64,000 nucleotides of DNA from Bacteroidota bacterium. GTDB taxonomy: Bacteria > Bacteroidota > Bacteroidia > CAILMK01. Made by a program: the position numbers and the translations under genes. Positions 8,863 through 52,115 of the stretch are shown piece by piece. The DNA is taken from the NCBI GenBank assembly GCA_036846145.1, contig DAIUCM010000002.1:15345-79344 (forward strand). The letters run 5' to 3'. The notes beneath the pieces are model-generated. The model was not told where the DNA came from, ran no database searches, and saw only the letters and a list, made by a program, of their open reading frames with translations. Every line of letters starts with the position of its first letter. Position 1 is the stretch's first letter.

Positions 8863-8913
8863 ATCCATTAAAAAATTAAAAATGCAGTAAACCAATCTCA
8901 ATTATAAATTAAA

Positions 8914-10771: not shown

Positions 10772-12085
10772 CTATTGTTTAATGAATTTCTGCACGCCAT
10801 TTGCCTGGTCTGCCTTTACATTAATAATGTACAAACCTGCCGGTAAATGCTGTATATTAATTTGCGTAATTGGATTGTTTTCAACATTTTGCTGCATCAC
10901 AACTTTGCCGCTTATATCTGTAACAGTAATTATTGCATTGGTTAAATTCTCAGCCCCAATATACAAAGTATTTTTTGCCGGGTTTGGATATGCGTTCACC
11001 AATAAATTGCCTTTACTTGATGATTTCTGGATACCAACAGTTGAGCGGTAATCTACAGCAATGGCCTCGGGTGAAACACCTACAGCAAATGTATCAATCA
11101 TCTCGCCCATTGTATTAAAAATGTATGTTTCGCCGGTGCTTGCATAATTGGTAGCGCTTACGTAAAACAGGTTATTTAAAGTATCAATTGCTGCGCCGGA
11201 AATGAAATTACTGAAAGTGCTTATACCCGGTATTTTGTTATAATTTACCAGTAACTGCTGGCTGAAAGCATCGCCTTCAATATCGTAATAACCAATGCCG
11301 CTATAACCGAAATCCATAAATACTTTATTATCATCTAAGCCAACACCAAAGCCGCTCGGGTAAGAATTGTAACCGATTTTGTGCGTTAAAGCGCAGGTTG
11401 CAACATTGTAAGTTGTAATAACATTTCGCTTGCTGTTAACGGCATAAACGTTTGTGCCATCGGTAAAAATACGGCCAATCTGCGCGCCGAGCGTATCCAG
11501 CATTATTTCGCGTTTCAGCTGCATGTTAACCAGGTCAATTACAGCAATGGTTCCGGTATCTTTATTGTACGGGCCGGCAACCGCAACATACGCTGTATCG
11601 CCAACAACTACAATGCCTGCAGCCTGGTCCGAAATTCCTGTTATAGTAAAAGCCTCGGTGAGATCTGTGTTGTTATACACTTTTACAAAATCGCTGCCTG
11701 CGCCATAACCGCGCGTTGCAATTACATAATTTTTGTACGTGGCCAGGTACGAAAGCCCGGTTGTGGATTTTGGTGTAACAGCCATGCGTGTATGATTATC
11801 AATATCATACTTTACCAGCAAAGTATCGGCAGTTAAATAAGTGAATTTGCCATCGGTAATAACTGTTTTTGTAGAGGCTGCGCGTATTGAATCAAAAACG
11901 GTATAAACCTTGGTATTTGGATTATATGCGCCGATACGAACATAATTGTTTGGGTTGCCGAACTGGCCTCCGCTGGCAACTATAACCTGGTTTGTTTTGA
12001 AGCTTTGTGCCGTAGCTGTTGGAAATGGTAAAAGTAAAACAAGCGCAAATACCGCCTGTAAAAGTAATGTAGCAATACGATTCAT
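10772..12085 (-). CDS. T9SS type-A CTD secreted protein (beta-propeller-like body)
   Basis: 437 aa; signal peptide; C-terminus NAYPNPAKNTLYI......ITVTDISGKVVMQQNV......INIQHLPAGLYIINV = Por_Secre_tail. Confidence 0.65.
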   Translation of the reverse strand: MNRIATLLLQAVFALVLLLPFPTATAQSFKTNQVIVASGGQFGNPNNYVRIGAYNPNTKVYTVFDSIRAASTKTVITDGKFTYLTADTLLVKYDIDNHTRMAVTPKSTTGLSYLATYKNYVIATRGYGAGSDFVKVYNNTDLTEAFTITGISDQAAGIVVVGDTAYVAVAGPYNKDTGTIAVIDLVNMQLKREIMLDTLGAQIGRIFTDGTNVYAVNSKRNVITTYNVATCALTHKIGYNSYPSGFGVGLDDNKVFMDFGYSGIGYYDIEGDAFSQQLLVNYNKIPGISTFSNFISGAAIDTLNNLFYVSATNYASTGETYIFNTMGEMIDTFAVGVSPEAIAVDYRSTVGIQKSSSKGNLLVNAYPNPAKNTLYIGAENLTNAIITVTDISGKVVMQQNVENNPITQINIQHLPAGLYIINVKADQANGVQKFIKQ

Positions 12086-12513
12086 TATATTAATTTCAGT
12101 TTAAAAGCATTTTTTGTGCTATGGAGATATGGAAAACCGAAATAAGGAAACGCCGCTTTTGCTAATGAAAAAATATTGCCGGCACTGCCAAAATCTCGCT
12201 GCTCCACTCCCCGGAAGCATATGAAATAAAAAGTTTTAGCAAGGGCAGGTCTTCTGGCTTACCTCGTTTTCTTCGTGCCTTCCCATCCAATTTATACAGC
12301 GGACAGTGGCTAAGGGGTTGAAGAAAAATATGCTCTTTTTTAAGGAGCATGAAGGCTTACAGCAGCGGGGACTGCTCCGGATTTCCACCGGATTCCCATT
12401 TTAAGGCATACAGTTTTTATACAATATTGCCACCAATGCTGCTGCAAAGTTAAAGTATTTTTTGTATGTTTGATATATGGCTTCCGCCAAAAAGCCATTG
12501 CCAAACCAAAACT

Positions 12514-22289: not shown

Positions 22290-22508
22290 GTAGAAACGAC
22301 GATTTATCGCGTCTCATTCTTGAGATGAAGCTGAGACGCGATAAATCGGCGTCTCTACAACACCAGAATGCCATTTACATATATACTTTGTCCAAAAAAT
22401 ACTTTCATAATTGAATCACGAAACCAGTGAAATCAAATTAATCATTATTAATCAGCGGTCTGACATGAAAACCGCGACGAAGCATTCGTAATTCGTAATT
22501 CGTAATTG
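22290..22508. mobile_element. degenerate MITE-like family-2 copy (27-bp hairpin GTAGAAACGACGATTTATCGCGTCTCA / TGAGACGCGATAAATCGGCGTCTCTAC; right end CCGCGACGAAGCATTCGTAATTCGTAATTCGTAATTG)
   Basis: Near-perfect 27-bp inverted repeat at 22290-22358; right-end block is reverse complement of the AATTACGAATGCATCGTCGCGG block at 8914; internal palindromic-motif half-site 22379-22406. Confidence 0.45.
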
Positions 22509-22510
22509 AA

Positions 22511-25342: not shown

Positions 25343-25530
25343 GCTGTTAATTATTCTTTATACTGAAGCATTTTTAGCCGTCTGCATATATGGATGCGCC
25401 GGAAAATGCTTCGTGATTTATTATTCTAAATATTCCCCTTCCAGGTAAAAATTATGGTTAACAAAAGGGTTTTTCAAAGGTATAAAAAATAGTTTCTATT
25501 CTTAGAGCATTGCCTTAAGCTGTAAAAGTC

Positions 25531-25615
25531 CCATGCCTTCAGCCTGTGTTGAAGCGGTAAAATACAAGAAGAGCCTTAAAGGCTCAGACACCAAAGCCTG
25601 GGGCAACGCCCTAGG
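25531..25615. repeat. REP-like cluster (GAGCCTTAAAGGCTC hairpin + CCTGGGGCAACGCCCTAGG hairpin, plus partial CAGGCTGAAGG...CATGGG module)
   Basis: Reverse-complement matches the module order of 10627-10677 and of the REP arms around the RAYT gene. Confidence 0.55.
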
Positions 25616-25667
25616 GAAAAATCAAAGCATTTTTCAGCAATACGCTATATGGAAAAGGCATAAAAAA

Positions 25668-28025: not shown

Positions 28026-28042
28026 TAAGGAATTAACAATTA

Positions 28043-28193
28043 CGAATTACGAATACATTAACGCGATGTAAAGACGACATGCCTGGCGTCTCGTTGCCGC
28101 GAAGATGTGAATTTCTATATATCAATTTACTAAAAAATGCTCTGAGCAAAATTTTCAATGTCGCGGATGAGACGCCAGGCATGTCGTCTCTAC
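28043..28193. mobile_element. MITE-like family-2 element, copy 1 (25-bp TIRs GTAAAGACGACATGCCTGGCGTCTC / GAGACGCCAGGCATGTCGTCTCTAC)
   Basis: Perfect 24/25 terminal inverted repeats at 28068-28092 and 28169-28193 enclosing ~75 bp that carries a palindromic-motif half-site (ctatatat..aaaaaatgctct); preceded by AATTACGAATTACGAATA block. Confidence 0.7.
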
Positions 28194-28312
28194 ACAGATC
28201 AACAGATAACAGAAATCTAAGGCATTTTCTGAATAAAGTATATATGTAGAAACAATAACTGGAATCTAAATTTCATTCAAAATTCAGCATTCAACATTCA
28301 AAATTTCACTCC

Positions 28313-29698
28313 ATGTCAAGCCCTAAAACGCAATTCATACAGCAGTCCAATAAAAAGGCATTTGATGTTGAGCACCGCAAACGCATCAACTTCAACATAG
28401 CCAAATACAAAGCCAGCGTTTATACGGGAATGAACCAGTTTGCCGATGTTACTTTGGCGCGCGAAAGGGCAGCAGCAGCAAAACGAAAAGTGGTGGAAAA
28501 CCTGGATAAATACCTGATAGAGTGGGAGGCAAATTTCAAGAAGAACGGCGGAAAAGTAATTTGGGCGCAGGATGCCGCTGAAGCCAATAAAGAAATTTTA
28601 GCCATACTGAAAAAGCACAATGTAAAAAGCATTGTGAAAAGTAAAAGTATGGTTACCGAGGAAATAAAGCTCAACGAATTCCTCAAACAAAACAATATAG
28701 AGCCGATTGAAACCGATCTGGGCGAATATATTCAGCAGCTGGATGGCGAGCCGCCTTACCACATTGTAACGCCAGCCATGCACAAAAGCAAGGAAGATAT
28801 CGCCAAACTTTTCCATGAGAAACTAGGTACGCCATTAGATTTCACCCCGCAGGAATTAACCTTAAAAGCACGCGAAATTTTACGGCAAAAGTATGTAGAA
28901 GCCGGCGCCGGATTTACAGGTGCTAACTTTTTACTGGCTGATATCGGTGGCGTGCATATGCTCGAGAATGAAGGCAACGGCAGGCTGAGCGCCTCTTTCC
29001 CTAAAGTGCATATTGTGGTTACAGGTATTGAAAAAATTCTTCCTTCGGTTCACGATCTTTCGTTATTTCTGCCGATGCTCTCTACGTTTGGTACGGGACA
29101 GAAAATCTGCAATTACAACACCATATATACAGGTCCGAAAAAACGCTTTGAGATTGACGGCCCGGAAGAAATGTATGTTGTTTTGCTTGATAATGGTAGA
29201 AGTGATCTGTTGGCGCAAGTTCCTCAGCGAGAGGCTTTGGGTTGTATTCGTTGCGGCGCTTGCTTAAATGCGTGCCCGGTTTATAAAAATGTAGGCGGAC
29301 ATACTTACGGGAAAACTTATTCCGGGCCTATTGGCTCTGTAATAACGCCGTATTACAATGGTTTCAAGAACTATGTACACTTAAGCTATGCTTCTTCGCT
29401 ATGCGGAAATTGTACGGAAGTTTGCCCGGTAAATATAGATCTTCATAAATACTTATTATACAATCGCCAGAAAGCAGTAGAAAGTAATTACACCGGCAGA
29501 GCTGAAAAACTTACCTGGTTTATGTGGCGCAAAGGCATGCTGAACCGTAAAACCATGAATCGCGGAAACGCTACTTTGAAAAATATTATGTTCCGAACTG
29601 TTTTTAGTGGAAGCTGGGGGAAACACCGTGCGCCAATTAAGTTTTCAGGAAAAACATTTAATGAGGAGTGGAAAGAGAAGTTTATGCCGAAGTCCTAA
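28313..29698 (+). CDS. lutB: LutB/YkgF-type lactate-utilization iron-sulfur protein (LUD domain + 2x[4Fe-4S])
   Basis: 461 aa; CIRCGACLNACPVY and CGNCTEVCPV ferredoxin motifs; LUD/DUF162 N-terminal region. Confidence 0.8.
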   Translation: MSSPKTQFIQQSNKKAFDVEHRKRINFNIAKYKASVYTGMNQFADVTLARERAAAAKRKVVENLDKYLIEWEANFKKNGGKVIWAQDAAEANKEILAILKKHNVKSIVKSKSMVTEEIKLNEFLKQNNIEPIETDLGEYIQQLDGEPPYHIVTPAMHKSKEDIAKLFHEKLGTPLDFTPQELTLKAREILRQKYVEAGAGFTGANFLLADIGGVHMLENEGNGRLSASFPKVHIVVTGIEKILPSVHDLSLFLPMLSTFGTGQKICNYNTIYTGPKKRFEIDGPEEMYVVLLDNGRSDLLAQVPQREALGCIRCGACLNACPVYKNVGGHTYGKTYSGPIGSVITPYYNGFKNYVHLSYASSLCGNCTEVCPVNIDLHKYLLYNRQKAVESNYTGRAEKLTWFMWRKGMLNRKTMNRGNATLKNIMFRTVFSGSWGKHRAPIKFSGKTFNEEWKEKFMPKS

Positions 29699-29704
29699 TG
29701 AAAA

Positions 29705-30529
29705 AATCCTGACGCGTCGCATCAGGCTGTGTTGTTTGAGCCTTTCAGGCTCTGCGTGTTGCCGATCCTAAACAGGCTGAAGGCCTGAAACAACCCGGCA
29801 TGGGGCATCGCCCTATGAATTTCGCCCCATGGAAATCGTCTAATTATTTTCATATATCAATCATATGCAGTCATGTGATTGATACATCAATCATCTTCCC
29901 AAAAATATTTCGGATCATATTCTGCAACCTGATATTCTTTCATAAACAATGCAGTTTCTTCTTCAAAACTATGATGCTGATGATGCTCTTTTTGATTTTG
30001 GATATATTGAATTACAGATTGTAGTTTGGAAGCGCTTACCGAAAATGCGCCATATCCCTTCTGCCAGAAAAATGCTTCAACACCTTGTTCCTTCATCCAT
30101 TTCGACGATTGTTTTTTCAGTTCTTCTACAACCCTGGCCAACGTATAATTTTTCGACATTCGGAACAAAATATGCACATGATCCGGCATGGTGTTGATGG
30201 CCAATCCCATACACTGATATTGCTGCAACGTACCGGCCAGATAGCTATGCAACCTTTCTTCAATTTCCGGCAAAATCCATGGCTCCCTGTGCTTTGTGCC
30301 GAACATTAGATGAATGTATAGTTGCGATAAAGACTGAGACATTTGTGAGATGTTTATAGAAAGGGAATTTACAAAAATTGTATAAATCCTGGCGGTATTC
30401 ATTTGACAATTTCCATGGGGCGATGCCCCATGCTGGGTTGTTTCAGGCCTTCAGCATGTGATGCAGTGGTTATTACAAACAGAGCCTGAAGGGCTCAGAC
30501 AATACAGCCTGATGCATCGCATCAGGATT
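29705..30529. mobile_element. REPtron-like unit: RAYT gene flanked by ~125-bp inverted arrays of REP hairpins
   Basis: Left arm 29705-29838 and right arm 30407-30529 are reverse complements (aatcctgacgcgtcgcatcaggctgtgttgtttgagcctttcaggctctg...gctgaaggcctgaaacaacccggcatggggcatcgcc vs revcomp of right arm), each with >=2 hairpin modules. Confidence 0.75.
29887..30342 (-). CDS. REP-associated tyrosine transposase (RAYT; IS200/IS605 TnpA-like HUH Y1 enzyme)
   Basis: HUH motif DHVHILF; catalytic Tyr region SKLQSVIQYIQNQKEHH; N-terminus LYIHLMFGTKHR; ORF-track start 30402, probable start at MSQSLSQLYIH (30342). Confidence 0.8.
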   Translation of the reverse strand: MSQSLSQLYIHLMFGTKHREPWILPEIEERLHSYLAGTLQQYQCMGLAINTMPDHVHILFRMSKNYTLARVVEELKKQSSKWMKEQGVEAFFWQKGYGAFSVSASKLQSVIQYIQNQKEHHQHHSFEEETALFMKEYQVAEYDPKYFWEDD

Positions 30530-30615
30530 ATTTGGCTATTACGATGTTGTATAACAGTTAGTTACATTTCCATATATGCTTTGGCCAAAAAATGCCTTGA
30601 GTGGCGCAGAAAAAT

Positions 30616-31212
30616 TTACCCTCTCCTTCTCTCCAGCAAAATCATCATCATTAGGCTTAAAATAGCACGTTCTTCTTCATCTCCACTAAATTCCGCAAGT
30701 TTATTCACAGAGAATTTACGGCCGAAGAAGGAAGGTTCTTTTCTTAAGCGTGCAACGGCTTCACCGCTTTGCCTGGTAACAATGTACGATGGATTGAAAA
30801 GGTAACCGCTGAGCAATCCTACAATGGGAATTGATTCCAGCAACGCGTCGGCCACTTTTACCCAACCATTCTCTTCCTGTATAATCATATCCTGCGTTTG
30901 GTTGCGGTCGTAAATTTCATAGCGCGCTTTCCATAAGCTGGCCCAGCCTTTCCTTGCCACGCGGCCAATTTCCGTGCCTGCGTTATTCGTAAAGATATAG
31001 GCCGCCGAAAAATCTATCCACTTGTTTGCTTTAATTGTATAAAGCGTTTGAGATTTGGTTTCATTGTTATAAACCAATACTTCTTCTATAAATTTAAAAA
31101 GCTTCTGCTTAACAAAAAATACAGTTGAATTCGAAGCATCACTAATTACAAAATCATTGGAAAAAGTTGTGATCTTAAAGGTGAAATTCAGCGGGTATTT
31201 TAGTTGAGACAT
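30616..31212 (-). CDS. hypothetical protein (possible LURP-one-related/tubby-like DUF567 fold)
   Basis: 198 aa; no catalytic motif; composition and length consistent with DUF567. Confidence 0.35.
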   Translation of the reverse strand: MSQLKYPLNFTFKITTFSNDFVISDASNSTVFFVKQKLFKFIEEVLVYNNETKSQTLYTIKANKWIDFSAAYIFTNNAGTEIGRVARKGWASLWKARYEIYDRNQTQDMIIQEENGWVKVADALLESIPIVGLLSGYLFNPSYIVTRQSGEAVARLRKEPSFFGRKFSVNKLAEFSGDEEERAILSLMMMILLERRRG

Positions 31213-31301
31213 GTTTTGGTATATGATTATTTGGTGCCAATTTAGGCTTTATTAATCGAATTATTTTTTAATCGCCATATATACTCCGGCCAAAAAATGG
31301 G

Positions 31302-32225
31302 TTAATAACTCATATACCAGCCAAAAAGCTGCTTTATAATACTTTCTTTCTCATGCTGCAGGTGGGCGATAAATGCGGCTGCCGGCGGCGATAGTTTTTT
31401 ATCTTTCAACCAAACCAGGTTCCATGTAGAGGTTAACGGCAGGCCCTTCACCGGGATTATTTGTAAATGGTTGTTCTTTAGCTCATTTTTTATGCCGATA
31501 ATAGGCATAATGGAATACCCAAGGCCTGCAATTACAGCCTGTTTTACAGCTTCGTTAGATGTAAGCTCGAATTTTTTATGTACCGACAAAGTGTTGCTGG
31601 CAATAAACCTTTCCATTACCTGCCGCGTGGCGGAACCTTCCTCGCGGTAAATAAGCGGTATTTTTTCCAGTATGGCCGGCGTATAGGTTTTGCGCCCGAA
31701 TTTCTGCTCGCCATTGCCCACCAGCACCAGTTTGTTCTGCAGCAGCGGTATAACATTAAGCTGCAGGCTTGCCGGTAACAAAGAAACCAGCGAAAAATCT
31801 ACCTCGTTTTTTTCCAGGCTTTCCACCACGCGGGCCTTGTTGGTAACATCCAGCACCAGCTCCACGCCATCGTGCTTTTTAAGGAAGGACGACAAAAAAA
31901 ACGGAATTACATACTTGCCAGTTGAAACCACCGATATTTTCAGCCGGCCAAACAGCTTGCCTTTGTGCGCCAGCAGCTTGTAGTTGATGGCGTACACTTC
32001 GTTTAAAATATTCTCTGCGGCGGCAGCTATTTCTTTACCAAAATCTGTAATGTAAAGGCGTTTGTTTACCACCTCCGTAAGGGGAATATGAAACTGCTGC
32101 TGAAAATTTTTTAGCTGTATAGATACTGCCGGTTGCGTAAGATGAAGCTCTTCGGCAGCTTTGGTAATGCTTTGTGTCTGAGCAATTTTAAGGAATATGC
32201 GCAGCTGGTTGAGGGTGTAGTTCAT
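31302..32225 (-). CDS. LysR-family transcriptional regulator
   Basis: 307 aa; N-terminal HTH LNQLRIFLKIAQTQSITKAAEELHLTQPAVSIQLKNFQ; LysR substrate-binding domain. Confidence 0.85.
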   Translation of the reverse strand: MNYTLNQLRIFLKIAQTQSITKAAEELHLTQPAVSIQLKNFQQQFHIPLTEVVNKRLYITDFGKEIAAAAENILNEVYAINYKLLAHKGKLFGRLKISVVSTGKYVIPFFLSSFLKKHDGVELVLDVTNKARVVESLEKNEVDFSLVSLLPASLQLNVIPLLQNKLVLVGNGEQKFGRKTYTPAILEKIPLIYREEGSATRQVMERFIASNTLSVHKKFELTSNEAVKQAVIAGLGYSIMPIIGIKNELKNNHLQIIPVKGLPLTSTWNLVWLKDKKLSPPAAAFIAHLQHEKESIIKQLFGWYMSY

Positions 32226-32234
32226 AAATTTTGC

Positions 32235-32249
32235 TTATGCAATTCATAA
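32235..32249. promoter_or_regulatory. LysR-type T-N11-A dyad (TTATGCAATTCATAA) in divergent LysR/IDH promoter region
   Basis: Perfect dyad ttatg-caatt-cataa between divergently transcribed LysR gene and IDH-family gene. Confidence 0.45.
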
Positions 32250-32317
32250 CAAAGTTAAATAAAAGTTTATGAAAAATCTTTCCCAACTTTGTGCAATCAA
32301 TGCTAAACAAAACAAAC

Positions 32318-33760
32318 ATGGAACAAAAGAGAATTACAGTTGCAAAAGGCGATGGCATAGGCCCTGAAATTATGGATGCCACGCTGAAAATAATCCTGGC
32401 CGCCGGTGCGCAGCTTAAGATTGATGAAATAGAGATAGGCGAAAAGGTGTACCTCGCAGGCAATACTTCCGGCATTTCACGCGAATCCTGGGACATCATC
32501 CGCAGGAACAAAATTTTCCTTAAAGCGCCCATTACCACACCACAAGGTGGCGGCTATAAAAGCCTTAACGTTTCTGCACGCAAGTTTTTAGGGCTGTACG
32601 CCAATATAAGGCCCTGCACCAGCCTGCACCCTTTTGTAAAAACCAAGCACCCGGAAATGGACATTGTAATTGTACGCGAAAACGAGGAAGACCTGTATGC
32701 CGGTATAGAGCACCAGCAAACCGATGAAGTAATACAATGCCTGAAGCTGATAAGCCGCCCGGGATGCGAAAAGATTGTACGGTATGCGTTTGAATACGCT
32801 AAACAATACGGCCGCAAGAAAGTGAGCTGCTTCACCAAAGATAACATCATGAAGCAAACGGATGGCTTGTTCCACCAGGTGTTTAACGAAATAGCGGCAG
32901 AATACCCAGAAATAGAAAACGAACACTGGATTATAGATATTGGCGCCGCCATGCTGGCCGATACGCCCGAAGCCTTTGATGTAATTGTAACCCCTAATTT
33001 ATATGGCGATGTAGTATCGGATATTGCCGCGCAGATTGCCGGATCGGTAGGTCTGGCGGGTTCCTCTAACATTGGTGAGAGCTGTGCCATGTTCGAGGCC
33101 ATACATGGCTCGGCGCCTAAAATTGCAGGCCAGGATATAGCCAATCCCTCTGGCTTGCTACAAGGTGCCGTAATGATGCTGAACCACATAGGCCAGAGCC
33201 ATGTAGCCGAAAAAGTACACAACGCCTGGCTGAAAACCATTGAAGATGGCATCCACACTGCAGATATTTACAAAGAAGGCGTAAGCCAGCGCAAGGTGGG
33301 CACACAGGAATTTGCCGTGGCGGTTATTAAAAATTTAGGACAGCAGCCCGGTTATTTCAAACCTGTGCAGTACAGCGGCAATGCTGTAATAAACCTGCCA
33401 CAGTACAAACGCCGTAAACCCGGCCAGAAAGAACTCGTAGGCACCGATGTATTTGTGCATTGGAGCGGCCATAACGCCAACGAGCTGGCAGAAATAATGA
33501 AGAAGATAGAAAATGCTGCGCTGGAGCTTACCATGATTACCAACCGCGGCATAAAAGTATGGCCCGATGGCTTTGAAGAAACCTTTTGTACCGACCACTG
33601 GCGCTGCCGCTTTAAGCCCGCTAACGGCAAGCCGCTTACCAATAAAGATATTATAAACCTGCTGGCCGCCGCGGCAGACCATAATATAGATACAATAAAA
33701 ACGGAAAATCTCTACGCTTTTGACGGCCGGCAGGCCTTTTCGCTGGGGCAGGGGCAATAG
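32318..33760 (+). CDS. isocitrate/isopropylmalate dehydrogenase-family enzyme with C-terminal extension; probable NADP-isocitrate dehydrogenase
   Basis: ORF 32291-33760; conserved Iso_dh motifs (ITVAKGDGIGPEIMDA, SLNVSARKFLGLYANIRP, NLYGDVVSDIAAQIAGSVGLAGSSNIGE); ~130-aa C-terminal extra domain. Confidence 0.6.
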   Translation: MEQKRITVAKGDGIGPEIMDATLKIILAAGAQLKIDEIEIGEKVYLAGNTSGISRESWDIIRRNKIFLKAPITTPQGGGYKSLNVSARKFLGLYANIRPCTSLHPFVKTKHPEMDIVIVRENEEDLYAGIEHQQTDEVIQCLKLISRPGCEKIVRYAFEYAKQYGRKKVSCFTKDNIMKQTDGLFHQVFNEIAAEYPEIENEHWIIDIGAAMLADTPEAFDVIVTPNLYGDVVSDIAAQIAGSVGLAGSSNIGESCAMFEAIHGSAPKIAGQDIANPSGLLQGAVMMLNHIGQSHVAEKVHNAWLKTIEDGIHTADIYKEGVSQRKVGTQEFAVAVIKNLGQQPGYFKPVQYSGNAVINLPQYKRRKPGQKELVGTDVFVHWSGHNANELAEIMKKIENAALELTMITNRGIKVWPDGFEETFCTDHWRCRFKPANGKPLTNKDIINLLAAAADHNIDTIKTENLYAFDGRQAFSLGQGQ

Positions 33761-33833
33761 TGCCGGCCCCGGCTTTTCCCGGAAAAATCAATGAAAAAAA
33801 TTTACATATAACCAACTTTAAAAAAATACTTCT

Positions 33834-34154
33834 ATGCAAACTATACAGGCAGAAACAACAGGCAGAAACAACTCGCAGGAGCAAAGTTTCACCTTTAGGC
33901 TTATAGATGGTGAATTTGACCAGTACGACGCCAAAGAAATACTGATGACGCTGATTAAAAGCAAGATGAATTACCATAATCTTAAAAATTTTTCATCGGA
34001 AATACGCTATGGCCGGCCCGATGAGCATTCCCAAAAGCGCATGAGCGAGCTGAAAGAAACGCGTGAAGACCTGCTGGCATTGCTGAGCCATACCTTGTGC
34101 GAAGGCAAAACCCTGCAGATAAATTCAACCATAGAAATAAACATTTTGGACTAA
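33834..34154 (+). CDS. hypothetical protein
   Basis: 106-aa ORF directly upstream of the SbtA-like permease; not PII-like. Confidence 0.3.
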   Translation: MQTIQAETTGRNNSQEQSFTFRLIDGEFDQYDAKEILMTLIKSKMNYHNLKNFSSEIRYGRPDEHSQKRMSELKETREDLLALLSHTLCEGKTLQINSTIEINILD

Positions 34155-34205
34155 GGCTTTGAAAAATTTAAAGGAAAAACACCAACAAAATTTTTTAATC
34201 CTGAA

Positions 34206-35168
34206 ATGAACTTCAACCTCTTATTAGAGAACCTTACCAACCCGGCCCTGCTGTTTTTTTTGCTGGGCATTGTTGCCGTGAGTTTAAAAAGCGACCTGGA
34301 AATACCGCCCAATTCATCCAAATTCATATCGCTGTACCTTTTGTTCAGCATTGGTTTTAAAGGTGGGCAGGAGCTTTCGCATGAGCATTTTAACGGGGAA
34401 GTAGCGCTTTCCATGTTGTTTGGCCTGGCAGTTTCGGTTGTTATTCCGCTATACACTTTTTTTGTTGCCAAACGCAAGATGAATATTTTTGATGCTGGCG
34501 CCATTGCCGCAGCGTATGGCTCTATAAGCGCGGTAACTTTTGTAACAGCGGTAAGCTACCTGGAAACACGCCAGATGGTTGTTAGCGGGCACATGGTGGC
34601 TTTAATGGCCATGATGGAAGTGCCTGCCATTGTTACCGGGTTGCTGCTGATATCTATGTTTAATAAAGACGCTGCGGAAAAAGTAGATAACGTTTCGGCC
34701 ATAAAACACTCGCTAACAAACGGCAGCGTGCTGATGATTTTGGGCAGCTTGTTTATAGGCTTTATAGCCAATGCCAAGCAAGCGGAAGGCATAAAACCCT
34801 TTACCACAGATATTTTTAAGGGTTTCCTGGCTATTTTCCTGCTGGATATGGGCATTGCCAGCGGCCGCAAGCTGAATACTTTTTTATCGAACGGGTTTTT
34901 CCCGCTGGTTTTCGCTGTGGTGGTTCCTGTGCTAAATGGCTGTGCAGTAGCCCTGCTGAATGGTGCCGTAACGCACAGCATAAGCAGCAGGTTTATCCTG
35001 GCCATTTTGGCTGCCAGTGCTTCTTATATTGCTGTGCCTGCCGCTATGAAAATGGCTGTACCGAGGGCCAATCCTGGTGTATTTCTGCCTATGGCGCTGG
35101 CCATTACCTTCCCGGTAAATATTACCTTAGGCATGCCGCTATATTATTTAATTATACAATCTCTCTGA
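34206..35168 (+). CDS. sodium-dependent bicarbonate transporter-family permease (SbtA/DUF897-like)
   Basis: 320 aa, ~10 TM, two-fold internal symmetry; length and hydropathy match SbtA family. Confidence 0.55.
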   Translation: MNFNLLLENLTNPALLFFLLGIVAVSLKSDLEIPPNSSKFISLYLLFSIGFKGGQELSHEHFNGEVALSMLFGLAVSVVIPLYTFFVAKRKMNIFDAGAIAAAYGSISAVTFVTAVSYLETRQMVVSGHMVALMAMMEVPAIVTGLLLISMFNKDAAEKVDNVSAIKHSLTNGSVLMILGSLFIGFIANAKQAEGIKPFTTDIFKGFLAIFLLDMGIASGRKLNTFLSNGFFPLVFAVVVPVLNGCAVALLNGAVTHSISSRFILAILAASASYIAVPAAMKMAVPRANPGVFLPMALAITFPVNITLGMPLYYLIIQSL

Positions 35169-35186
35169 GTTCCTTTGTTTGTAGCA

Positions 35187-35224
35187 AGCCCGCCGGTTTC
35201 ATCTCTCCACCGGCGGGCTTTTTA
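35187..35224 (+). terminator. rho-independent terminator
   Basis: agcccgccgg-tttcatctctcca-ccggcgggc-ttttt. Confidence 0.7.
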
Positions 35225-35250
35225 CATATATAGGGTTGCCGGAAAATGCT

Positions 35251-36714
35251 TCAAATACGCAATCCCACCAGCACTTTTTCAATCTTACTTTTAATTTCTG
35301 CGGAAGAACAGGTGTAATTATTCACGATCAGCGCAAAGGCATATTTTTTATCGGCAGATGTATAGCCGGCATAACTTCTTACCCTGTCCATGTGGCCGCT
35401 TTTGGCGCGTAATTTTCCCGAAATGGCAGTTCCATCGCCCATGTTACGCATAGCGCCGCTTTCTCCCGCAACCGGCAAAGAATTATAAAAACTGCTGAAA
35501 TAAGTTTCTTTCTTTACAGATGCCAGCACAGCAGTTAATTGATTGGCCGTTATGGCGTTGTAATGCGATAATCCACTGCCGTCATTCATAAAAAAACCTT
35601 TCGCATCTACACCTTTACTTTTCCAGAATTGCGTAATGGCTTTTGCACCCGCTTCGGTAGAACCTTCGTTAAAAACCTTGTAGCCGCATTCTTTCAATAA
35701 ATGTTCCGCGTACAGGTTGATGCTTTTAAGGTTTGTATGATAGACAATGTCCTTTAGCGGCGGCGAAACTGTTGTATGCAGCGCAGGGAATTCCGGCTTA
35801 AACGGGCTGTTATTACCTTGATTAAGCTGGAAACCACGGTTTTTAAGTTCGTTTATTAAGCTTTCCACGCAAAAAGCAACAGGATTTGGCATAGCGCCTT
35901 TGACCTTAAAGCCTTTGCTGCCGGCCGGGATTGTGCCGCGAATAACAAAATTAGGATTGTTCGGAGCGCCAAAAATATAAGCGTTATCTCCGGAATTTGC
36001 CGGCCCTGCCTTCAGCTCGCTTATCAGTGTAAATTGCGGCAGTTTCGGGTTGATGTCAACAATTTCCACTTCGCTGCCGACTGTTGCCGGTGCATTTAAT
36101 GTAACCACATACGTATTTTCATTGATGGTTAAAGCACTGGCGCCCGAACCATAATAATTACCGATATCGTTCCAGGCCCAATTGGCGGGTTGCATGGCAT
36201 TTTCGTAGCGGTTGGTAATAGCCGAAATACTGCCAATTTTTTTCTGCGGAAATTTCTGGGTAATGGCATCGGCCCAGGATTTTACCAGCGCATCCGAACC
36301 CGACGAGCCTTTTACCCTGTCTGAACCCAAAGTCGGGTCGCCTCCGCCAATGATGAAAATATTGTTGCTAACAGAATCGTAAACGAGTTGCGTTTTAAAA
36401 GTATAATCTTCGCCCAAAATACCCAAAGCGGCTGCAGTAGTTACAATTTTTAAGCTGGAAGCCGGAATAATCGACTGGTTAGCGTTGTGCTCAAAAATAG
36501 CTTTTCCGGTTTCTGTATCTACCAAAGCAAAACCCACAGAAGCGTGCGCAAGTGCCGGATCGTTTATGAAGGTTTTGAATATTTGCCTGAATTTTTCTAG
36601 TTTATCAGAATCTGCAGGTGGAGAAATGGACGAGAAACCAATAAAGCAAAAGAGCAAAATCAGGCTAAACAAAGCATTTTTTCGGGTTCGTATATATGGA
36701 GAAGTTTGATCCAA
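35251..36714 (-). CDS. dacB: D-alanyl-D-alanine carboxypeptidase/endopeptidase (PBP4 family)
   Basis: 487 aa; signal peptide; SxxK active site in IIPASSLKIVTTAAALGIL; PBP4 fold length; annotated first 14 codons overlap a palindromic-motif instance. Confidence 0.8.
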   Translation of the reverse strand: MDQTSPYIRTRKNALFSLILLFCFIGFSSISPPADSDKLEKFRQIFKTFINDPALAHASVGFALVDTETGKAIFEHNANQSIIPASSLKIVTTAAALGILGEDYTFKTQLVYDSVSNNIFIIGGGDPTLGSDRVKGSSGSDALVKSWADAITQKFPQKKIGSISAITNRYENAMQPANWAWNDIGNYYGSGASALTINENTYVVTLNAPATVGSEVEIVDINPKLPQFTLISELKAGPANSGDNAYIFGAPNNPNFVIRGTIPAGSKGFKVKGAMPNPVAFCVESLINELKNRGFQLNQGNNSPFKPEFPALHTTVSPPLKDIVYHTNLKSINLYAEHLLKECGYKVFNEGSTEAGAKAITQFWKSKGVDAKGFFMNDGSGLSHYNAITANQLTAVLASVKKETYFSSFYNSLPVAGESGAMRNMGDGTAISGKLRAKSGHMDRVRSYAGYTSADKKYAFALIVNNYTCSSAEIKSKIEKVLVGLRI

Positions 36715-36760
36715 TTAAAAATTAAGAATTAAAAATTAAAAATGCCGTGATATGTTTTGT

Positions 36761-36905
36761 GTAGAGACGACATGCCTGGCGTCTCGTTGCCGCGAAATTG
36801 CGGTTTTCATATATGGTTTCGCTGAAAAATGCCTTCATTCAGTGACCAGTAATCAGTGACCAGTGCATCGTCGCGGCGTAGAGACGCCAGGCATGTCGTC
36901 TCTAC
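36761..36905. mobile_element. MITE-like family-2 element, copy 2 (TIRs GTAGAGACGACATGCCTGGCGTCTC / GAGACGCCAGGCATGTCGTCTCTAC)
   Basis: 25/25 perfect TIRs at 36761-36785 and 36881-36905; internal catatatgg..aaaaatgcc motif and CAGTGACCAGTAATCAGTGACCAG direct repeat; sits between dacB start and Fic-like gene stop. Confidence 0.75.
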
Positions 36906-38924: not shown

Positions 38925-39080
38925 TTAATTATAATAGCAAGTCCATATTGCGTAAAGCCGAAAAATGATTTTGCAAATTAATGGGATTAAAATTTATTTC
39001 ACTAAATAAAGTTAGATGTGCCATATTTTGAAAATATGGCACATCTGCGCTCTGAACCTAATATATTTACCAACCATTAA
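38925..39080. repeat. ~160-bp duplicated element copy 1, containing perfect 33-bp palindrome (38994-39026); candidate sRNA or MITE
   Basis: ~85% identical to 55975-56152; begins with palindromic-motif half-site (gtccatattgcg..gccgaaaaatgatttt); palindrome AGATGTGCCATATTTTGAAAATATGGCACATCT identical in both copies; ends with ccaacc..gttgg hairpin + T7 in this copy. Confidence 0.6.
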
Positions 39081-39117
39081 TGCATAAAATCTTCTGTTGG
39101 ATTTTTTTCGAGTCACG

Positions 39118-45572: not shown

Positions 45573-45674
45573 ATTTTAATATACTTAAGCTTTTAAAAAT
45601 ATGCAATTTAACGATAAAGCACCGGAATAATTTCTTGCCGAAGCATTTTTCCGCATTTATATATATGGAATATT

Positions 45675-47068: not shown

Positions 47069-48307
47069 ATGCGTTTCCTTCAAAAGTTTATACAGCACAC
47101 TCTGTTATTCATCTGCATTACTTTCAGCACGAATGTTTTTTCACAAACCGACAGCATAAAAAAGCCTTCCGTTGCCGAACAGCCAGCCAGGGAAAAAGCC
47201 TGGTACGAAAAAATAGCTTTGCGTGGCTATACACAAATACGCTATAACAGGCTGCTGGAAACGAACCCGGATCTTAAATGCGACCAGTGCGATAAATCAT
47301 GGGGAGCAAATGGTGGTATTTTTATTCGCCGCGCCAGGCTTGTGCTTAGTGGCGATGTGCATCCGCAGGTTTATATTTATATTCAGCCCGATTTAGCTTC
47401 TGCACCTTCCAGCAACTCATTGCATTTTGCGCAGCTGCGCGATGCTTATTTCGACCTTAGTTTCGATAAAAGCAAAGAATACCGTTTGCGTGTAGGCCAA
47501 AGCAAAATACCTTATGGTTTTGAGAATTTACAATCGAGCCAGAACCGTTTAGCGCTGGACAGGAACGATGCATTGAACAGCGCTGTTGCCAATGAACGCG
47601 ATATGGGCGCTTTTTTCTACTGGGCGCCAAAACACATCCGCGAAAGATTTTCAAGCCTTATAAAATCCGGATTGAAAGGCTCGGGAGATTATGGTGTTTT
47701 TGCTTTTGGCGCTTATAACGGGCAAACTGCCAATAAGCCGGACCTTAACAATTCACTGCATTACGTAGCAAGAGTTTCCTATCCTTTCCAGTTTAAAAAT
47801 GGCCAGATCATCGAACCGGGCATACAGGCTTACACAGGTAAATTTGTTGTTGCTACAGACCAGATCACAAAAGGCGTAACTTTAAATAACACGGAAGTTT
47901 TAGATGAGCGCGCCGCAGCAAGCTTTGTAGTTTACCCACAGCCATTTGGTTTCCAGGCAGAATATAATATCGGCACCGGCCCGGAGTTCAATCCGCAGAC
48001 CAATACAATAGATTCCAGGAAACTGGAAGGCGGCTATGCCATGATAAATTACAAGCTGAATATTGGAAAACAGCTTTTGTATCCATTCATCAGAACCCAA
48101 TATTACAGCGGCGGAAAAAAGCACGAAACCGATGCCCGTAAATACCGCGTTCGCGAGCACGAATTTGGCATAGAATGGCAGCCTTACAACAACTTCGAGC
48201 TTGTAGCTATGTACACCATTTCGGATAGAACCTTTGAAGATTTCAAGCTGCCAAGCAACGCACAAAGCGGTAATTTATTAAGGCTGCAGCTACAGTTCAA
48301 TTACTAA
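47069..48307 (+). CDS. OprO/OprP-like porin-family outer-membrane protein
   Basis: 412 aa; signal peptide; IRRARLVLSGDVHPQVYIYIQPD segment typical of Porin_O_P; divergent from 45675 porin. Confidence 0.5.
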   Translation: MRFLQKFIQHTLLFICITFSTNVFSQTDSIKKPSVAEQPAREKAWYEKIALRGYTQIRYNRLLETNPDLKCDQCDKSWGANGGIFIRRARLVLSGDVHPQVYIYIQPDLASAPSSNSLHFAQLRDAYFDLSFDKSKEYRLRVGQSKIPYGFENLQSSQNRLALDRNDALNSAVANERDMGAFFYWAPKHIRERFSSLIKSGLKGSGDYGVFAFGAYNGQTANKPDLNNSLHYVARVSYPFQFKNGQIIEPGIQAYTGKFVVATDQITKGVTLNNTEVLDERAAASFVVYPQPFGFQAEYNIGTGPEFNPQTNTIDSRKLEGGYAMINYKLNIGKQLLYPFIRTQYYSGGKKHETDARKYRVREHEFGIEWQPYNNFELVAMYTISDRTFEDFKLPSNAQSGNLLRLQLQFNY

Positions 48308-48385
48308 GAATAATGAATGATTGAATGAATGTAAGAATGAAAGAATATGCCGCGATGCGAAGCAAACCGAAATTCAATTACGAAT

Positions 48386-48551
48386 CAATGTCGTTTAATT
48401 AAGGATGGAATAAATTCCATCCCTACAATATTTGATCGTCCATACTGGACTTGATTAACGCTCCGAACCAAGTTCCATGGGAACGATAAAATATTGTAGC
48501 AACGGATTTTAATCCGTTGATGGCAAGAATTTTCTTACCTAAACGACATTG
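48386..48551. repeat. structured element with nested inverted repeats (outer 12-bp IR CAATGTCGTTTA/TAAACGACATTG; inner IR CTACAATATTT/AAATATTGTAG; hairpins GGATGGAATAAATTCCATCC and CAACGGATTTTAATCCGTTG); candidate ncRNA or MITE
   Basis: Four independent stem pairs within 166 bp, flanked on both sides by direct copies of AATTACGAAT + GCCGCGATGCGAAGCAA blocks related to MITE family 2 ends. Confidence 0.5.
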
Positions 48552-49048
48552 AATTACGAATGCCGCGATGCGAAGCAACCTTACAACCTTACAACTATAA
48601 AACTTCACAACTTCATTTACATATAAACATCTCGGAAAAAATACTTTGTGCCTTTGTGCCTTCGTGGCAAAAAAACCTGAAGATGAAGCAAGCTTACAAA
48701 CTTCAGCTTGAATTGCATATAAATGAAGCCTAAAAGTGCTTTCAAAACGAATCACACAATCAGCGAAATCTTAAAAATCATCATTAATCAGCGGTTAAAA
48801 CCGCGATGCGAAGTAATTTTTCAATTTTCCAATATTACAATTTTCCAATTCATCCATATATTACCCTCAGAAAAAATGCTTCATGTTTGGAGTGTTAAAA
48901 ACACAAAGTGTTAACAATTTCTTAACATTGGAGCTTCCACAACATTGCTTTGCTGCGTAACTTTGTATTGAAATTCCATATTTGCAACAAGGCTTCAATA
49001 AAACCATAACACACTTCAAATCAACGGAATATAATTATTAAAACACGA

Positions 49049-50071
49049 ATGAAAAAAGCCATTTATTTTTTACTGGCAGCAGGAATCAGTTTAAGCGCCT
49101 GCAACAATAATAATCAAGGCGATAATGCAGGAAAGACAGAACAACAGGGAGCGATACAGATTGACGGCTCCAGCACTGTTTATCCTATTACTGAAGCAAT
49201 TGCAGAAGAATACCGTACAGAAAGTCCGGGTATAAAAATTACAGTTGGCGTTTCGGGTACAGGCGGCGGCTTTAAAAAATTCACACGCGGCGATATTGAT
49301 ATTAACGATGCTTCCCGCTCAATTTCAGCTGGTGAGCTTGAGCAGGCAACACAAAATAAAATTGATTTTATAGAATTACCCGTTGCTTATGATGGTCTCG
49401 CTATTGTGGTAAACCCTGAGAATAACTGGGCGAAAGATATTACCGTTGCCGAGCTGAAAAAGCTTTGGGAGCCGGAAGCGCAGAATAAAATAAAACGCTG
49501 GAACCAGATTCGCCCGGAATGGCCTAACGAGGAAATTCACTTGTTTGGCGCGGGAGTAGAATCAGGCACGTATGATTATTTTACAGAGGCAATTGTAGGC
49601 AAAGCGCACAGCAGCCGTGGCGATTATACTGCCAGCGAGGATGACAATGTATTGGTACAGGGAATTTCTACCGATAAAAATGCGCTTGGCTTTTTTGGTG
49701 TAGCTTATTACAACGAAAATAAGGCAAAACTGAAGCTATTACCAGTTGACGACGAGAACGATGCGAACGGAAAAGGCGCAATTTCACCAACCGATGAAAC
49801 CATACAAAACGGAACTTACCAGCCGCTGAGCCGCCCGATTTTTATTTATGTTAACGCTAAAGCCGCAGAACGGGCAGAAGTAAGCGATTTTATAAACTTT
49901 TACCTTGAAACTGTAGGCCAGATTGCAAAAGAAGTTGGTTACGTTGCCTTACCAAATGATGTTTACGAACTGGTAAAAAAACGCTTTAACAATAAGAAAA
50001 CCGGCTCTGCATTTCTAAATAAATCGCATGTAAATGTGAACCTGAAAGAAATGCTTAGCGATAGCAAGTAA
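49049..50071 (+). CDS. pstS: phosphate ABC transporter substrate-binding protein PstS
   Basis: 340 aa; lipoprotein signal (LAAGISLSAC); DGSSTVYPITEA...SGTGGGFKKF PBP motifs. Confidence 0.9.
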   Translation: MKKAIYFLLAAGISLSACNNNNQGDNAGKTEQQGAIQIDGSSTVYPITEAIAEEYRTESPGIKITVGVSGTGGGFKKFTRGDIDINDASRSISAGELEQATQNKIDFIELPVAYDGLAIVVNPENNWAKDITVAELKKLWEPEAQNKIKRWNQIRPEWPNEEIHLFGAGVESGTYDYFTEAIVGKAHSSRGDYTASEDDNVLVQGISTDKNALGFFGVAYYNENKAKLKLLPVDDENDANGKGAISPTDETIQNGTYQPLSRPIFIYVNAKAAERAEVSDFINFYLETVGQIAKEVGYVALPNDVYELVKKRFNNKKTGSAFLNKSHVNVNLKEMLSDSK

Positions 50072-51867: not shown

Positions 51868-52115
51868 AATATGAACATGTATAATCTCGGTTGCCGGGAT
51901 ACTGAAAGTGCGAAACCCAAAAGCATAAAAGTTTGCATAGCGTTTTTAGAAAATAATATATAGAAGAAAAATTAAGAGTAGCCATTAATGGGCGAAAAAA
52001 ACAGCCTGGCCTAAAGGCCAGGAAATAACAAAGCATTTTTACTTGCTTCCATATATGGAAACCACGGAAAATGCTTTACTTGATAATTGATAATTGATAA
52101 TTGAACATTGGGAAA

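Follow-up and report, generated by a model that had tools for sequence, protein, structure and literature searches.

The analysed stretch of DNA (64 kb, hereafter the window) carries two short repeat elements, located in the rpiB-lutB and Fic-dacB spacers. Between the rpiB stop codon and copy 1 there are 42 nt, and from copy 1 to the lutB ATG 119 nt; copy 2 follows the stop of the Fic-like gene at a distance of 36 nt, with dacB downstream. At both, the genes on either side are co-directional. An HUH-Y1 transposase gene is present between them, 1.7 kb from copy 1. The 25-mer GTAGAGACGACATGCCTGGCGTCTC occurs four times in the window and forms two inverted pairs, one spanning 28068-28193 and the other 36761-36905; shuffled sequence yielded 0 matches, and 0 are expected by chance. 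A sequence-only reading had described two near-identical copies with inverted ends of 24-25 bp, and this was confirmed: the ends match at 24/25 positions around 76 bp in copy 1 and at 25/25 positions around 95 bp in copy 2, where the inverted repeat continues imperfectly to 50 nt (86%). We call each pair a doublet, composed as follows:

28068-28092, + strand: candidate REP unit, left arm of doublet 1; the 25-mer with one mismatch, tag GTAA for GTAG
28093-28168: spacer of doublet 1, 76 bp; inner inverted blocks CCGCGA / TCGCGG lengthen the hairpin
28116-28143, + strand: box-arm motif in doublet 1, CTATATAT-N9-AAAAAATGCT; weight matrix, 28.5 bits
28169-28193, - strand: candidate REP unit, right arm of doublet 1; exact 25-mer
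36761-36785, + strand: candidate REP unit, left arm of doublet 2; exact 25-mer
36786-36880: spacer of doublet 2, 95 bp; GTTGCCGCGAA at its start as in doublet 1, GCATCGTCGCGGCGTA at its end
36808-36835, + strand: box-arm motif in doublet 2; weight matrix, 32.5 bits; kept in the orthologous spacer of relative L021
36881-36905, - strand: candidate REP unit, right arm of doublet 2; exact 25-mer

The 25-mer is itself a GTAG-footed hairpin. In the fold of a single unit (-7.5 kcal/mol, z -3.9), GTA is unpaired and the stem GAGACG/CGTCTC is extended by 2 inner pairs; its stem of 6 bp and 10-nt loop region make the hairpin of this main subtype a weak one. Whole doublets gave -38.3 kcal/mol (z -10.0, doublet 1) and -48.5 kcal/mol (z -10.9, doublet 2). 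When tetramers are ranked as 5' tags of the window's perfect hairpins, GTAG comes first (8/261 occurrences), and the right arm of doublet 2 has the foot at both ends, GTAG (36878) also preceding it on the + strand. Units are not confined to inverted pairs: some stand singly, some in tandem, and a 28-nt 'double-foot' palindrome also exists. When target-site duplications were looked for, no direct repeats of at least 2 nt flanked any of the three doublets in the window. No T-run was seen at the doublets, which are therefore not intrinsic terminators. The intergenic spacers that hold the doublets are mosaics, containing also AT-rich decamer runs, CCGCGACG blocks and copies of the box-arm motif.

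The degenerate relatives proposed elsewhere in the window proved real, as an inverted pair at 22290-22358 and a single unit at 8940-8965; the whole family amounts to seven units only. Recurrence of the end blocks was likewise borne out. These features are:

8898-8941, + strand: end block, AT-rich decamer run (AATTACGAAT)n plus GCATCGTCGCGG, from the inverted-repeat search (block given to 8937)
8940-8965, - strand: single candidate REP unit of a third subtype, GTAGAAACGTTGCATTGCAACGTCTG
22290-22358: variant-subtype doublet, head-to-head; two units of 26 nt around a 17-nt spacer, GTAGAAACGACGATTTATCGCGTCTC / GTAGAGACGCCGATTTATCGCGTCTC
22466-22509, - strand: end block in opposite orientation, CCGCGACGAAGC plus (ATTCGTAATT)n; kept in L021
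48403-48519: two further GTAG-footed hairpins paired tail-to-tail, GTAGGGATGGAATTTATTCCATCC (- strand) and GTAGCAACGGATTTTAATCCGTTG (+ strand); part of the 48310-48900 cluster

The 22290-22358 doublet folds at -26.1 kcal/mol (z -8.5). The end blocks at 8898-8941 and 22466-22509 are 89% complementary over 44 nt, and CCGCGATGCGAAGC occurs three times within the 48310-48900 cluster, where the stems of the GTAG hairpins are unrelated to the 25-mer family. Gene positions were as previously given for all three copies, the 8940 unit being followed by a small secretion-tail ORF and then the TonB-dependent receptor. By direct reading, subtype feet are GAGACG..CGTCTC or GAGACAA..TTGTCTC, and the upper stems differ yet remain self-complementary, i.e. 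compensated (CA/TG, GGC/GCC, TTGCA/TGCAA, CGAT/ATCG).

We consider it probable, at roughly 0.8, that the 25-bp 'terminal inverted repeats' are GTAG-footed REP units and their pairs head-to-head REP doublets of the REPIN/BIME kind. The foot shared by the subtypes, GTAGAGAC...GTCTC(TAC), is that of REPs flanking subclass 2.4 (RAYT group 4) genes of REP-associated tyrosine transposases (Quentin et al. 2018, PMC6006769). In Additional file 2 of that paper, GTAGAGACAAGGCATGCCTTGTCTCTAC flanks AFL81528.1 (AesuA01), GTAGAGACGCACGGCCGTGCGTCTCTAC flanks ACL24330.1 (CaggA01) and GTAGAGACGTTGCATGCAACGTCTCTAC flanks ACK69880.1 (CyspE01, Cyanothece), all of subclass 2.4; the last REP is identical to L021:18067-18094 and close to the unit at 8940-8965. 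Also shared with the REPs of PMC6006769 are the 25-28 nt length class of 'long' REPs, the 'double-foot' form (here L021:18067-18094, and in L009 the window's subtype followed by TAC) and Bacteroidetes among the hosts. Our family differs in its main subtype (GTAGAGACGA..., inner GACATGCCTGGC), which has 0 occurrences in the published REP table, in consisting here mostly of head-to-head doublets with 76-95 bp spacers, and in that neither the window nor the approximately 200 kb of loci examined yielded a cognate class-2 REP-associated transposase gene. With the GTAG REP super-family (Di Nocera et al. 2013, PMC3733652) and the Pseudomonas REPINs (Bertels and Rainey 2011, PMC3116915) it shares the unpaired GTAG tag, a stem within 5-13 bp, subfamilies with compensated stems, sites downstream of coding regions between co-directional genes, and dimers with tags outside; PMC3733652 describes the head-to-head dimer, whose spacer of 20-100 bp is often conserved, as the typical arrangement of GTAG REPs. 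In contrast, the Di Nocera survey recorded GTAG repeats in Proteobacteria, Cyanobacteria, Chloroflexi and the PVC group, and none in Bacteroidetes.

In the explanation we propose, each unit is a short hairpin whose 5' foot GTAG leaves GTA unpaired while its G closes the stem. Two inverted units with outward feet make up the head-to-head doublet (a REPIN, or BIME in E. coli), which is predicted to form one long hairpin as single-stranded DNA or RNA. An HUH-Y1 enzyme of the RAYT kind, presumably encoded elsewhere in the genome, would cut and rejoin the units on single-stranded DNA, or would have done so in the past, and the family is probably non-autonomous mobile DNA. The doublets past the rpiB and Fic-like stops would serve at most as RNA 3'-end hairpins, and are likely to be neither promoters nor canonical terminators.

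The family extends to other genomes. In a Chitinophagales MAG, 7 contigs carry the exact 25-mer, in single units, tandem copies, one doublet and the double-foot form; 2 contigs from a MAG labelled 'Bacteroidales' have it too, as do 4 metagenome contigs belonging to the window's own clade. Orthologous sites also differ among relatives. At rpiB-lutB, L014-L016 harbour a doublet of a different subtype, L021 has no repeat, and in L022 (80% LutB identity) the spacer consists of 47 nt only and is free of repeats. In the orthologous Fic-dacB spacer of L021 (85% identical overall; Fic-like protein 78% identical), the Fic-proximal arm is 25/25 identical and the other arm is decayed. The 22290 doublet, downstream of polA, has a decayed orthologous copy in L021, and this site carries there an extra 35-nt double-foot REP which the window lacks.

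Thus two of the three doublets (doublet 2 and 22290) occupy orthologous positions in L021, which would fit slow turnover and also a structural role selected by the host. A conserved orthologous structure such as an attenuator had been named as grounds against mobility; orthology does hold for these two doublets, but a locus-specific attenuator is made less likely by the 25-mer at unrelated loci in MAGs labelled as other orders. The broader possibility is that the doublets are immobile long hairpins selected as RNA 3'-end stabilisers, as insulators between co-directional genes or as binding platforms, their REP likeness reflecting origin only. The excess conservation of one arm over its spacer and the placement 36-42 nt past stop codons between co-directional genes speak for it, as does the same location bias in published REP work. 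We nevertheless regard it as unlikely, given the repeats at unrelated loci, the lack of T-runs and the rpiB-lutB site, which changes subtype in L014-L016 and is empty in L021 and L022; moreover, one arm is decayed in each orthologous L021 doublet, and the long hairpin is therefore not maintained in that genome. Very improbable is a classical MITE, i.e. a deletion derivative of a DDE-type IS whose transposase would bind the 25-bp ends in trans and duplicate the target. The model apparently behind the sequence-only reading is the Correia (NEMIS) element, a MITE found in Neisseria; it has 26-bp TIRs, contains an IHF site and provides promoters as well as terminators. The inverted ends around 76-95 bp, the similar size, the intergenic siting and the enclosed protein-site-like motif all suit such an element. 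However, Correia elements duplicate a TA target and their ends are not known to be GTAG-footed hairpins, whereas here neither duplications nor a promoter consensus were found, the ends are self-complementary and also exist as singletons, tandem copies and the 28-nt palindrome, and their foot is that of catalogued REPs. Furthermore, both arms of a pair change subtype together (rpiB-lutB in L014-L016), and no IS or full-length element with the 25-bp ends was detected in the sequence examined. Of the MITE-like description, dispersed modular repeats with inverted ends remain.

The window might alternatively hold a complete enzyme-plus-repeat system, with its own Y1 gene handling the GTAG units. 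The features concerned are:

29701-29838: 'family 2' inverted doublet, a different hairpin repeat beside the Y1 gene; partner at 30393-30533
29887-30342, - strand: HUH-Y1 (IS200-like) gene of subclass 1.2, 151 aa; Pfam Y1_Tnp 2.9e-28

Its position between the two main doublets speaks for this, as do its presence in single copy and its conserved synteny (tatC-rpiB-lutB-Y1-LOR) in four related assemblies, together with the co-occurrence of the GTAG family in the host clade. Its product is identical to P0001 over 151 aa, and its motifs DHVH, WQ and YIQNQKEHH agree with Table 1 of PMC6006769. Against this, it is flanked here and at every orthologue examined (L012, L013, L014) by family 2, which has no GTAG foot, and the 25-mer loci of the Chitinophagales and Bacteroidales MAGs contain neither a family-2 unit nor a Y1 homologue. 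The residues contacting GTAG are conserved in subclasses 2.2, 2.4, 2.5 and 2.7, while subclass 1.2 is recorded as 'REP: no' (PMC6006769). Judged from these sequence relationships, the gene is probably not the cognate enzyme, and a self-contained system appears quite improbable.

Finally, we examined the internal motif TATATA...AAAAATGC(T/C)T, which had been taken as promoter-like and characteristic of the elements. It is indeed inside both doublets, but it is not private to them and is far more widespread in the host lineage: a weight-matrix scan for the box-arm motif gave 73 sites in the 64-kb window (about 55 strong) versus 0-1 in shuffles. Among the relatives sampled, it was detected in the closest ones only. 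The sigma-70 scan gave 0 hits on the motif, and it does not match the Bacteroidetes promoter consensus TTG-N19-TAnnTTTG. With respect to the downstream gene it takes both orientations (15:11 in tandem spacers), without consistency, and it is also found within genes and in convergent spacers. Because of this lack of consensus, the mixed orientation and the intragenic and convergent sites, promoter donation is unproven. Pseudomonas REPIN spacers are short and are not known to carry a separate protein-site-like motif, and in E. coli BIMEs of the RIB/RIP type an IHF site lies between two inverted REPs. The doublets resemble the latter as REP pairs around a short protein-site-like motif that recurs elsewhere in the genome, in a several-module mosaic, and differ in that the enclosed motif is a bipartite sequence of about 36 bits with about one site per kb. 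Repeats of this kind are already on record from cyanobacteria and Bacteroidetes, so that the family is a real but ordinary find; the genome-wide box-arm motif is the oddest feature encountered here.

The 25-bp inverted ends that the sequence-only reading had described at two places in the window are REP units with a GTAG foot. The 25-mer GTAGAGACGACATGCCTGGCGTCTC is found in four window copies (28068, +, with one mismatch; 28169, -; 36761, +; 36881, -) against zero matches expected in shuffled sequence, and both inverted pairs reported earlier are present, enclosing 76 bp in doublet 1 and 95 bp in doublet 2. The degenerate relatives proposed alongside them were recovered as well: a variant pair at 22290-22358, one variant unit on its own at 8940-8965, and the end blocks. 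The latter consist of AT-rich decamer runs together with GCATCGTCGCGG, and related CCGCGATGCGAAGC blocks lie in 48310-48900. For doublet 1, doublet 2 and the 8940 unit, the gene context agreed with the earlier description:

GTAG-footed doublets and single unit in their gene context
28068-28193, + strand, doublet 1, in the order tatC, rpiB, doublet 1, lutB
36761-36905, - strand, doublet 2, in the order Fic-like gene, doublet 2, dacB
8940-8965, single variant unit, upstream of a small secretion-tail ORF, which is followed by a TonB-dependent receptor gene

Seven units of the family are present in the 64 kb, six of them carrying the GTAG tag and the remaining one GTAA. No 16-mers of the window are more abundant than those derived from the 25-mer, and GTAG is the top-ranked 5' foot tetramer of its perfect hairpins. 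In the fold of the 25-mer, GTA is left single-stranded and a stem forms between GAGACG and CGTCTC (-7.5 kcal/mol, z -3.9). Over three subtypes, the units fold at -7.5 to -11.3 kcal/mol (z -3.9 to -6.6), and a single 22290 unit folds weakly on its own (z -0.65). All subtypes retain the foot GAGAC/GTCTC; their upper stems differ yet remain complementary. As single strands, the three window doublets reach -38.3, -48.5 and -26.1 kcal/mol, with z values from -8.5 to -10.9 across these three and one doublet of L014, a locus from a relative of the window. Three features of GTAG REPs are found together: a GT[AG]G foot, a short stem-loop (stem of 5-13 bp) with compensated changes, and inverted doublets that form one long hairpin. 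According to Di Nocera et al. 2013 (PMC3733652), GTAG repeats usually occur in head-to-head dimers whose spacers measure 20-100 bp and are often conserved, and the doublets described here show the same head-to-head arrangement with the feet pointing outward.

Other modules share the spacers with these units. Microsatellite-like AT-rich decamer runs (AATTACGAAT, ATTAAAAATTAAGA) adjoin REPs at 36715-36745, 28031-28056 and 22485-22509. Upstream of dacB, the window and L021, the locus of a close relative, share an identical 31-nt run, TTTTTAATTTTTAATTCTTAATTTTTAATTG (- strand), while their whole spacers are only 85% identical. The 740-bp spacer between genes for a phosphate-selective porin (47069-48307) and a PstS-like binding protein (49049-50071) holds, in 48310-48900, AATGAATG-type runs, three CCGCGATGCGAAGC blocks, two sites of the bipartite box-arm motif that also occurs inside the doublets, and a tail-to-tail pair of two more GTAG-footed hairpins with unrelated stems (48403-48519).

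Quentin et al. 2018 (PMC6006769) sorted the HUH-Y1 proteins into subclasses, among which subclass 2.4 tnpA(REP) equals group 4 of Bertels' RAYTs. Genes of this subclass are abundant in Cyanobacteria and Bacteroidetes, and their flanks contain long REPs as well as REPs of a "double-foot" type, which carry GT[AG]G at the 5' side and C[TC]AC at the 3' side. In Additional file 2 of that paper GTAGAGAC was found 25 times, and the foot GTAGAGAC...GTCTCTAC is common to the window units and the REPs listed for four genes:

REPs catalogued in PMC6006769 that share the foot of the window units
GTAGAGACAAGGCATGCCTTGTCTCTAC, strain code AesuA01, AFL81528.1
GTAGAGACGCACGGCCGTGCGTCTCTAC, CaggA01, ACL24330.1
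GTAGAGACGTTGCATGCAACGTCTCTAC, CyspE01, ACK69880.1
GTAGAGACAGGGCATTGCCCTGTCTCTAC, EmolA01, AFK02851.1, with '?' in the subclass column

The REP of ACK69880.1 (GTAGAGACGTTGCATGCAACGTCTCTAC) is identical to L021:18067-18094 and close to the window unit 8940-8965, and GTAGAGACAAGGCATGCCTTGTCTCTAC resembles the subtype carried by the related loci L014-L016. As for the main subtype of the window, GTAGAGACGA gave no match in Additional file 2 of PMC6006769, and its double-foot form was seen in a Chitinophagales MAG (L009). The finding is best filed as a new addition to the GTAG-footed REP family tied to subclass 2.4 REP transposases, its units being organised as REPIN/BIME-like doublets within mosaic spacers.

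The sequence-only reading had taken these pairs for MITEs capable of donating promoters or terminators to neighbouring genes. A classical MITE is not borne out by the flanks of the three doublets (AT and AC, GT and AA, TC and AA), at which there was no direct repeat of at least 2 nt, i.e. no target-site duplication; nor was a full-length element with the same ends and a transposase seen in the window or the fetched loci. The proposed donation fared no better: the sigma-70 promoter scan returned no match in either element, and the only terminator-like match of the intrinsic terminator scan was a small hairpin on the strand opposite the genes. Known RNA families were considered too. At the gathering score, Rfam returned only a cobalamin riboswitch in the whole window, and at permissive E-values the elements matched either nothing or generic long-hairpin models far below threshold (plant and animal miRNA precursors, Wolbachia sRNA 46); the elements do not belong to a known RNA family. 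The internal motif that had been called promoter-like is indeed enclosed by the elements, but it is a property of the lineage's spacers rather than of the element. In annotation, such pairs should not be taken for MITEs, nor their contents for promoters.

The window derives from an uncultured Bacteroidia group; with its LutB, that of MAGs labelled 'Sphingobacteriales' or 'Bacteroidia bacterium' shares 94% identity, that of Chitinophaga only about 62%. The exact 25-mer occurs on seven contigs of one Chitinophagales MAG, with at least 10 exact copies, where it is found singly, in tandem at a distance of 173 nt, in a doublet whose partner has decayed, and in a double-foot form. It is also present on two contigs of a 'Bacteroidales' MAG. 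A metagenome scan with the 25-mer yielded four short contigs, all of the window's own clade, and no Y1 gene was found on these four. At L004:6205-6600 of the Chitinophagales MAG (JBBRPD010000063.1), three 25-mers in the same orientation, 173 nt apart, are part of a tandemly repeated composite unit, which indicates that the family also makes head-to-tail arrays in another lineage.

The gene order tatC-rpiB-lutB-Y1-LOR is common to four related assemblies. In L014-L016, the rpiB-lutB spacer is homologous to that of the window and contains a head-to-head doublet of another subtype, both arms having changed together, with a degenerate box-arm motif. In L013/L021, only a single GTAGGGGC... hairpin is present, elsewhere in the spacer, and in L022 (LutB 80% identical) the spacer is 47 nt long and carries no repeat. 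The same element as in the window occupies the Fic-dacB spacer of L021, with the Fic-proximal arm identical at 25 of 25 positions and the other arm decayed; the Fic-like proteins of the two are 78% identical. Downstream of polA, the 22290 doublet is decayed in L021, and an extra 35-nt double-foot REP is found there that is missing from the window. From these comparisons of orthologous sites, it can be inferred that the family persists at its sites for long, decays, and is replaced, gained or lost. This pattern of turnover fits described REPIN populations, unlike a locus-specific attenuator.

From the family match, the GTAG units would be mobilised by a class-2 tnpA(REP) enzyme. A class-2 tnpA(REP) gene was looked for in the 64-kb window and in fetched loci totalling about 200 kb, and none was found. 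The cognate transposase was sought by tblastn, in which the Y1 protein of the window was the query against every locus, by a six-frame search for the regular expression HuH...YIxxNP, and by Pfam on the three ORFs with an HxH motif that lie no more than 1.5 kb from a REP copy in loci of the Chitinophagales MAG; all three were negative.

The window does contain a gene for an IS200-like protein at 29887-30342 (- strand; Pfam Y1_Tnp, 2.9e-28). The protein has a true length of 151 aa and contains the motifs DHVH, WQ (FFWQ) and YIQNQKEHH. Subclass 1.2 is characterised by DH[IV]H, WQ and a YIKNQKEHH-type Y motif (Y---Q--HH) in about 148 aa (PMC6006769 Table 1), and judged by these motifs the gene belongs to TnpA(Y1) subclass 1.2. 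Members of this subclass are low-copy, occur in Cyanobacteria and Bacteroidetes and are recorded as 'REP: no' (PMC6006769); the gene described here is single-copy and syntenic in the four related assemblies. With the NCBIfam IS200/IS605 model NF033573 the protein scores 71.6 bits and passes (cut-off 55), with that for REP-associated tyrosine transposases, NF047646, it scores 36.3 bits and fails (cut-off 80), and the nearest solved structures are IS200/IS605 TnpAs. Motifs, scores and nearest structures together set it apart from canonical REP-associated transposases.

Around the Y1 gene, here and in every orthologue examined, lie inverted doublets of another hairpin repeat, family 2 (within 29701-30533 in the window), whose unit consists of [CYTGGGGCGATGCCCCARG], about 11 nt, then [GAGCCTTTCAGGCTC]. 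Solo copies are located at 10627-10672 and 25500-25618. Since these flanks are a different repeat, which has no GTAG foot and is missing from the MAG loci carrying the 25-mer, the Y1 gene is probably not the cognate enzyme of the GTAG units. The REPtron-like layout may itself be new for subclass 1.2, as the literature gives this subclass without associated REPs (PMC6006769).

The box-arm motif, ttTcCATATATa-N9-aAAAAATGCTTt, is composed of a palindromic box, CATATATG, followed at fixed spacing by the arm AAAAATGCTT; at some sites, arms are present on both sides of the box. A weight matrix detected 73 sites in the window above 11 bits (0-1 in shuffles), 55 of which exceeded 22 bits. The motif contains about 36 bits of information and occurs about once per kb, for example at:

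Examples of box-arm sites in the window
294-335, box-arm site
25358-25419, box-arm site
36664-36705, box-arm site
45633-45674, box-arm site
52023-52084, box-arm site

The sites are roughly ten-fold enriched in spacers, with 17 of the 55 within called genes, and their number per spacer is 0.77 in tandem, 0.80 in divergent and 0.44 in convergent spacers (4 of 9 convergent spacers). When orientation is denoted F for box upstream of arm and R for the reverse, tandem spacers contain 15 F and 11 R sites relative to the genes. The 9-nt spacers of the motif are unconstrained, and at orthologous sites the box and arm are conserved while the spacer varies. Every GTAG unit in the window's clade lies 18-158 nt from a box-arm site without fixed arrangement, with the exception of a sub-group in which the REP is followed by GTTGCCGCGA and then by the box at 19-26 nt. 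L021 contains 14 sites in 20 kb. The window carries the motif, as do those sampled relatives whose LutB falls into the same 90% cluster or is 94% identical. No such site occurs in the 21-kb samples from relatives whose LutB is 80% or 71% identical, nor in the 25-mer-bearing MAG loci.

A 136-nt repeat, present at 38969-39104 and 56023-56158 (90% identical), begins directly after a box-arm site; within it lies a perfect palindrome of 33 nt, AGATGTGCCATATTTTGAAAATATGGCACATCT. In loci L001 and L003-L005 of the Chitinophagales MAG, the 25-mer is adjoined by hairpins that have the foot of this repeat (GATGTGCCAC...GTGGCACATC) and another upper stem. The 136-nt repeat may represent a further shared family of REP-like elements or the gene of a small RNA.

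The one RNA anchor for the direction of the motif is the cobalamin riboswitch at 12227-12452 (- strand, 94.6 bits), as tRNA genes and other Rfam genes were found neither in the window nor in related loci. It is preceded by a box-arm site with a perfect TAACTTTG directly after the arm; most other sites have no such TAACTTTG box at that position. A second strong site, at 12097-12138, separates the riboswitch from the start codon ATG at 12085, the whole arrangement spanning 12085-12486 on the - strand. The product of the gene downstream has a type IX secretion tail.

As for the nature of the motif, the Bacteroidetes promoter consensus is TTG-N19-TAnnTTTG. The arm reads ATGCTTTG, not TAnnTTTG, and candidate canonical -7 boxes (TAAATTnn) are found closer to the start codons, at variable distance. 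A promoter is not supported: this consensus is not matched, the sigma-70 scan of both elements gave no match, and the orientation is inconsistent. The term TAnnTTTG occurs in PMC6847099, PMC9723704 and PMC7366714. Taking the arm for a sigma-54 site (GG-N10-GC) was rejected, the spacing being 8-9 nt and the GG not conserved, and so were copies of a tiny mobile element, the 9-nt spacers being about as dissimilar as column-shuffled controls. A literature search on the motif sequence and on uptake sequences in Bacteroidetes yielded nothing relevant. We consider it rather unlikely that the doublets are carriers or preferential neighbours of a new genome-wide punctuation motif, the putative site of an abundant, lineage-specific DNA-binding protein and not a promoter. 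If they were, the protein would be a nucleoid-structuring factor or an uptake-signal-like receptor, and the RIB/RIP elements of E. coli would serve as a model for doublets that carry or neighbour such a motif.

The GTAG-footed doublets represent a clear example from an uncultured lineage of Bacteroidia and provide material for studying the spread and turnover of subclass 2.4 REP systems. MAGs that bear the labels of other orders share the 25-mer, the family comprises several coexisting subtypes, and the units are embedded in mosaics. The orthologous sites record persistence, decay of one arm, subtype replacement, a REP carried by just one of two relatives and one repeat-free spacer. The repeat-flanked subclass 1.2 gene and the box-arm motif, the latter found at about one site per kb and seen only in the closest relatives sampled, are more unusual than the REP finding and may matter more.
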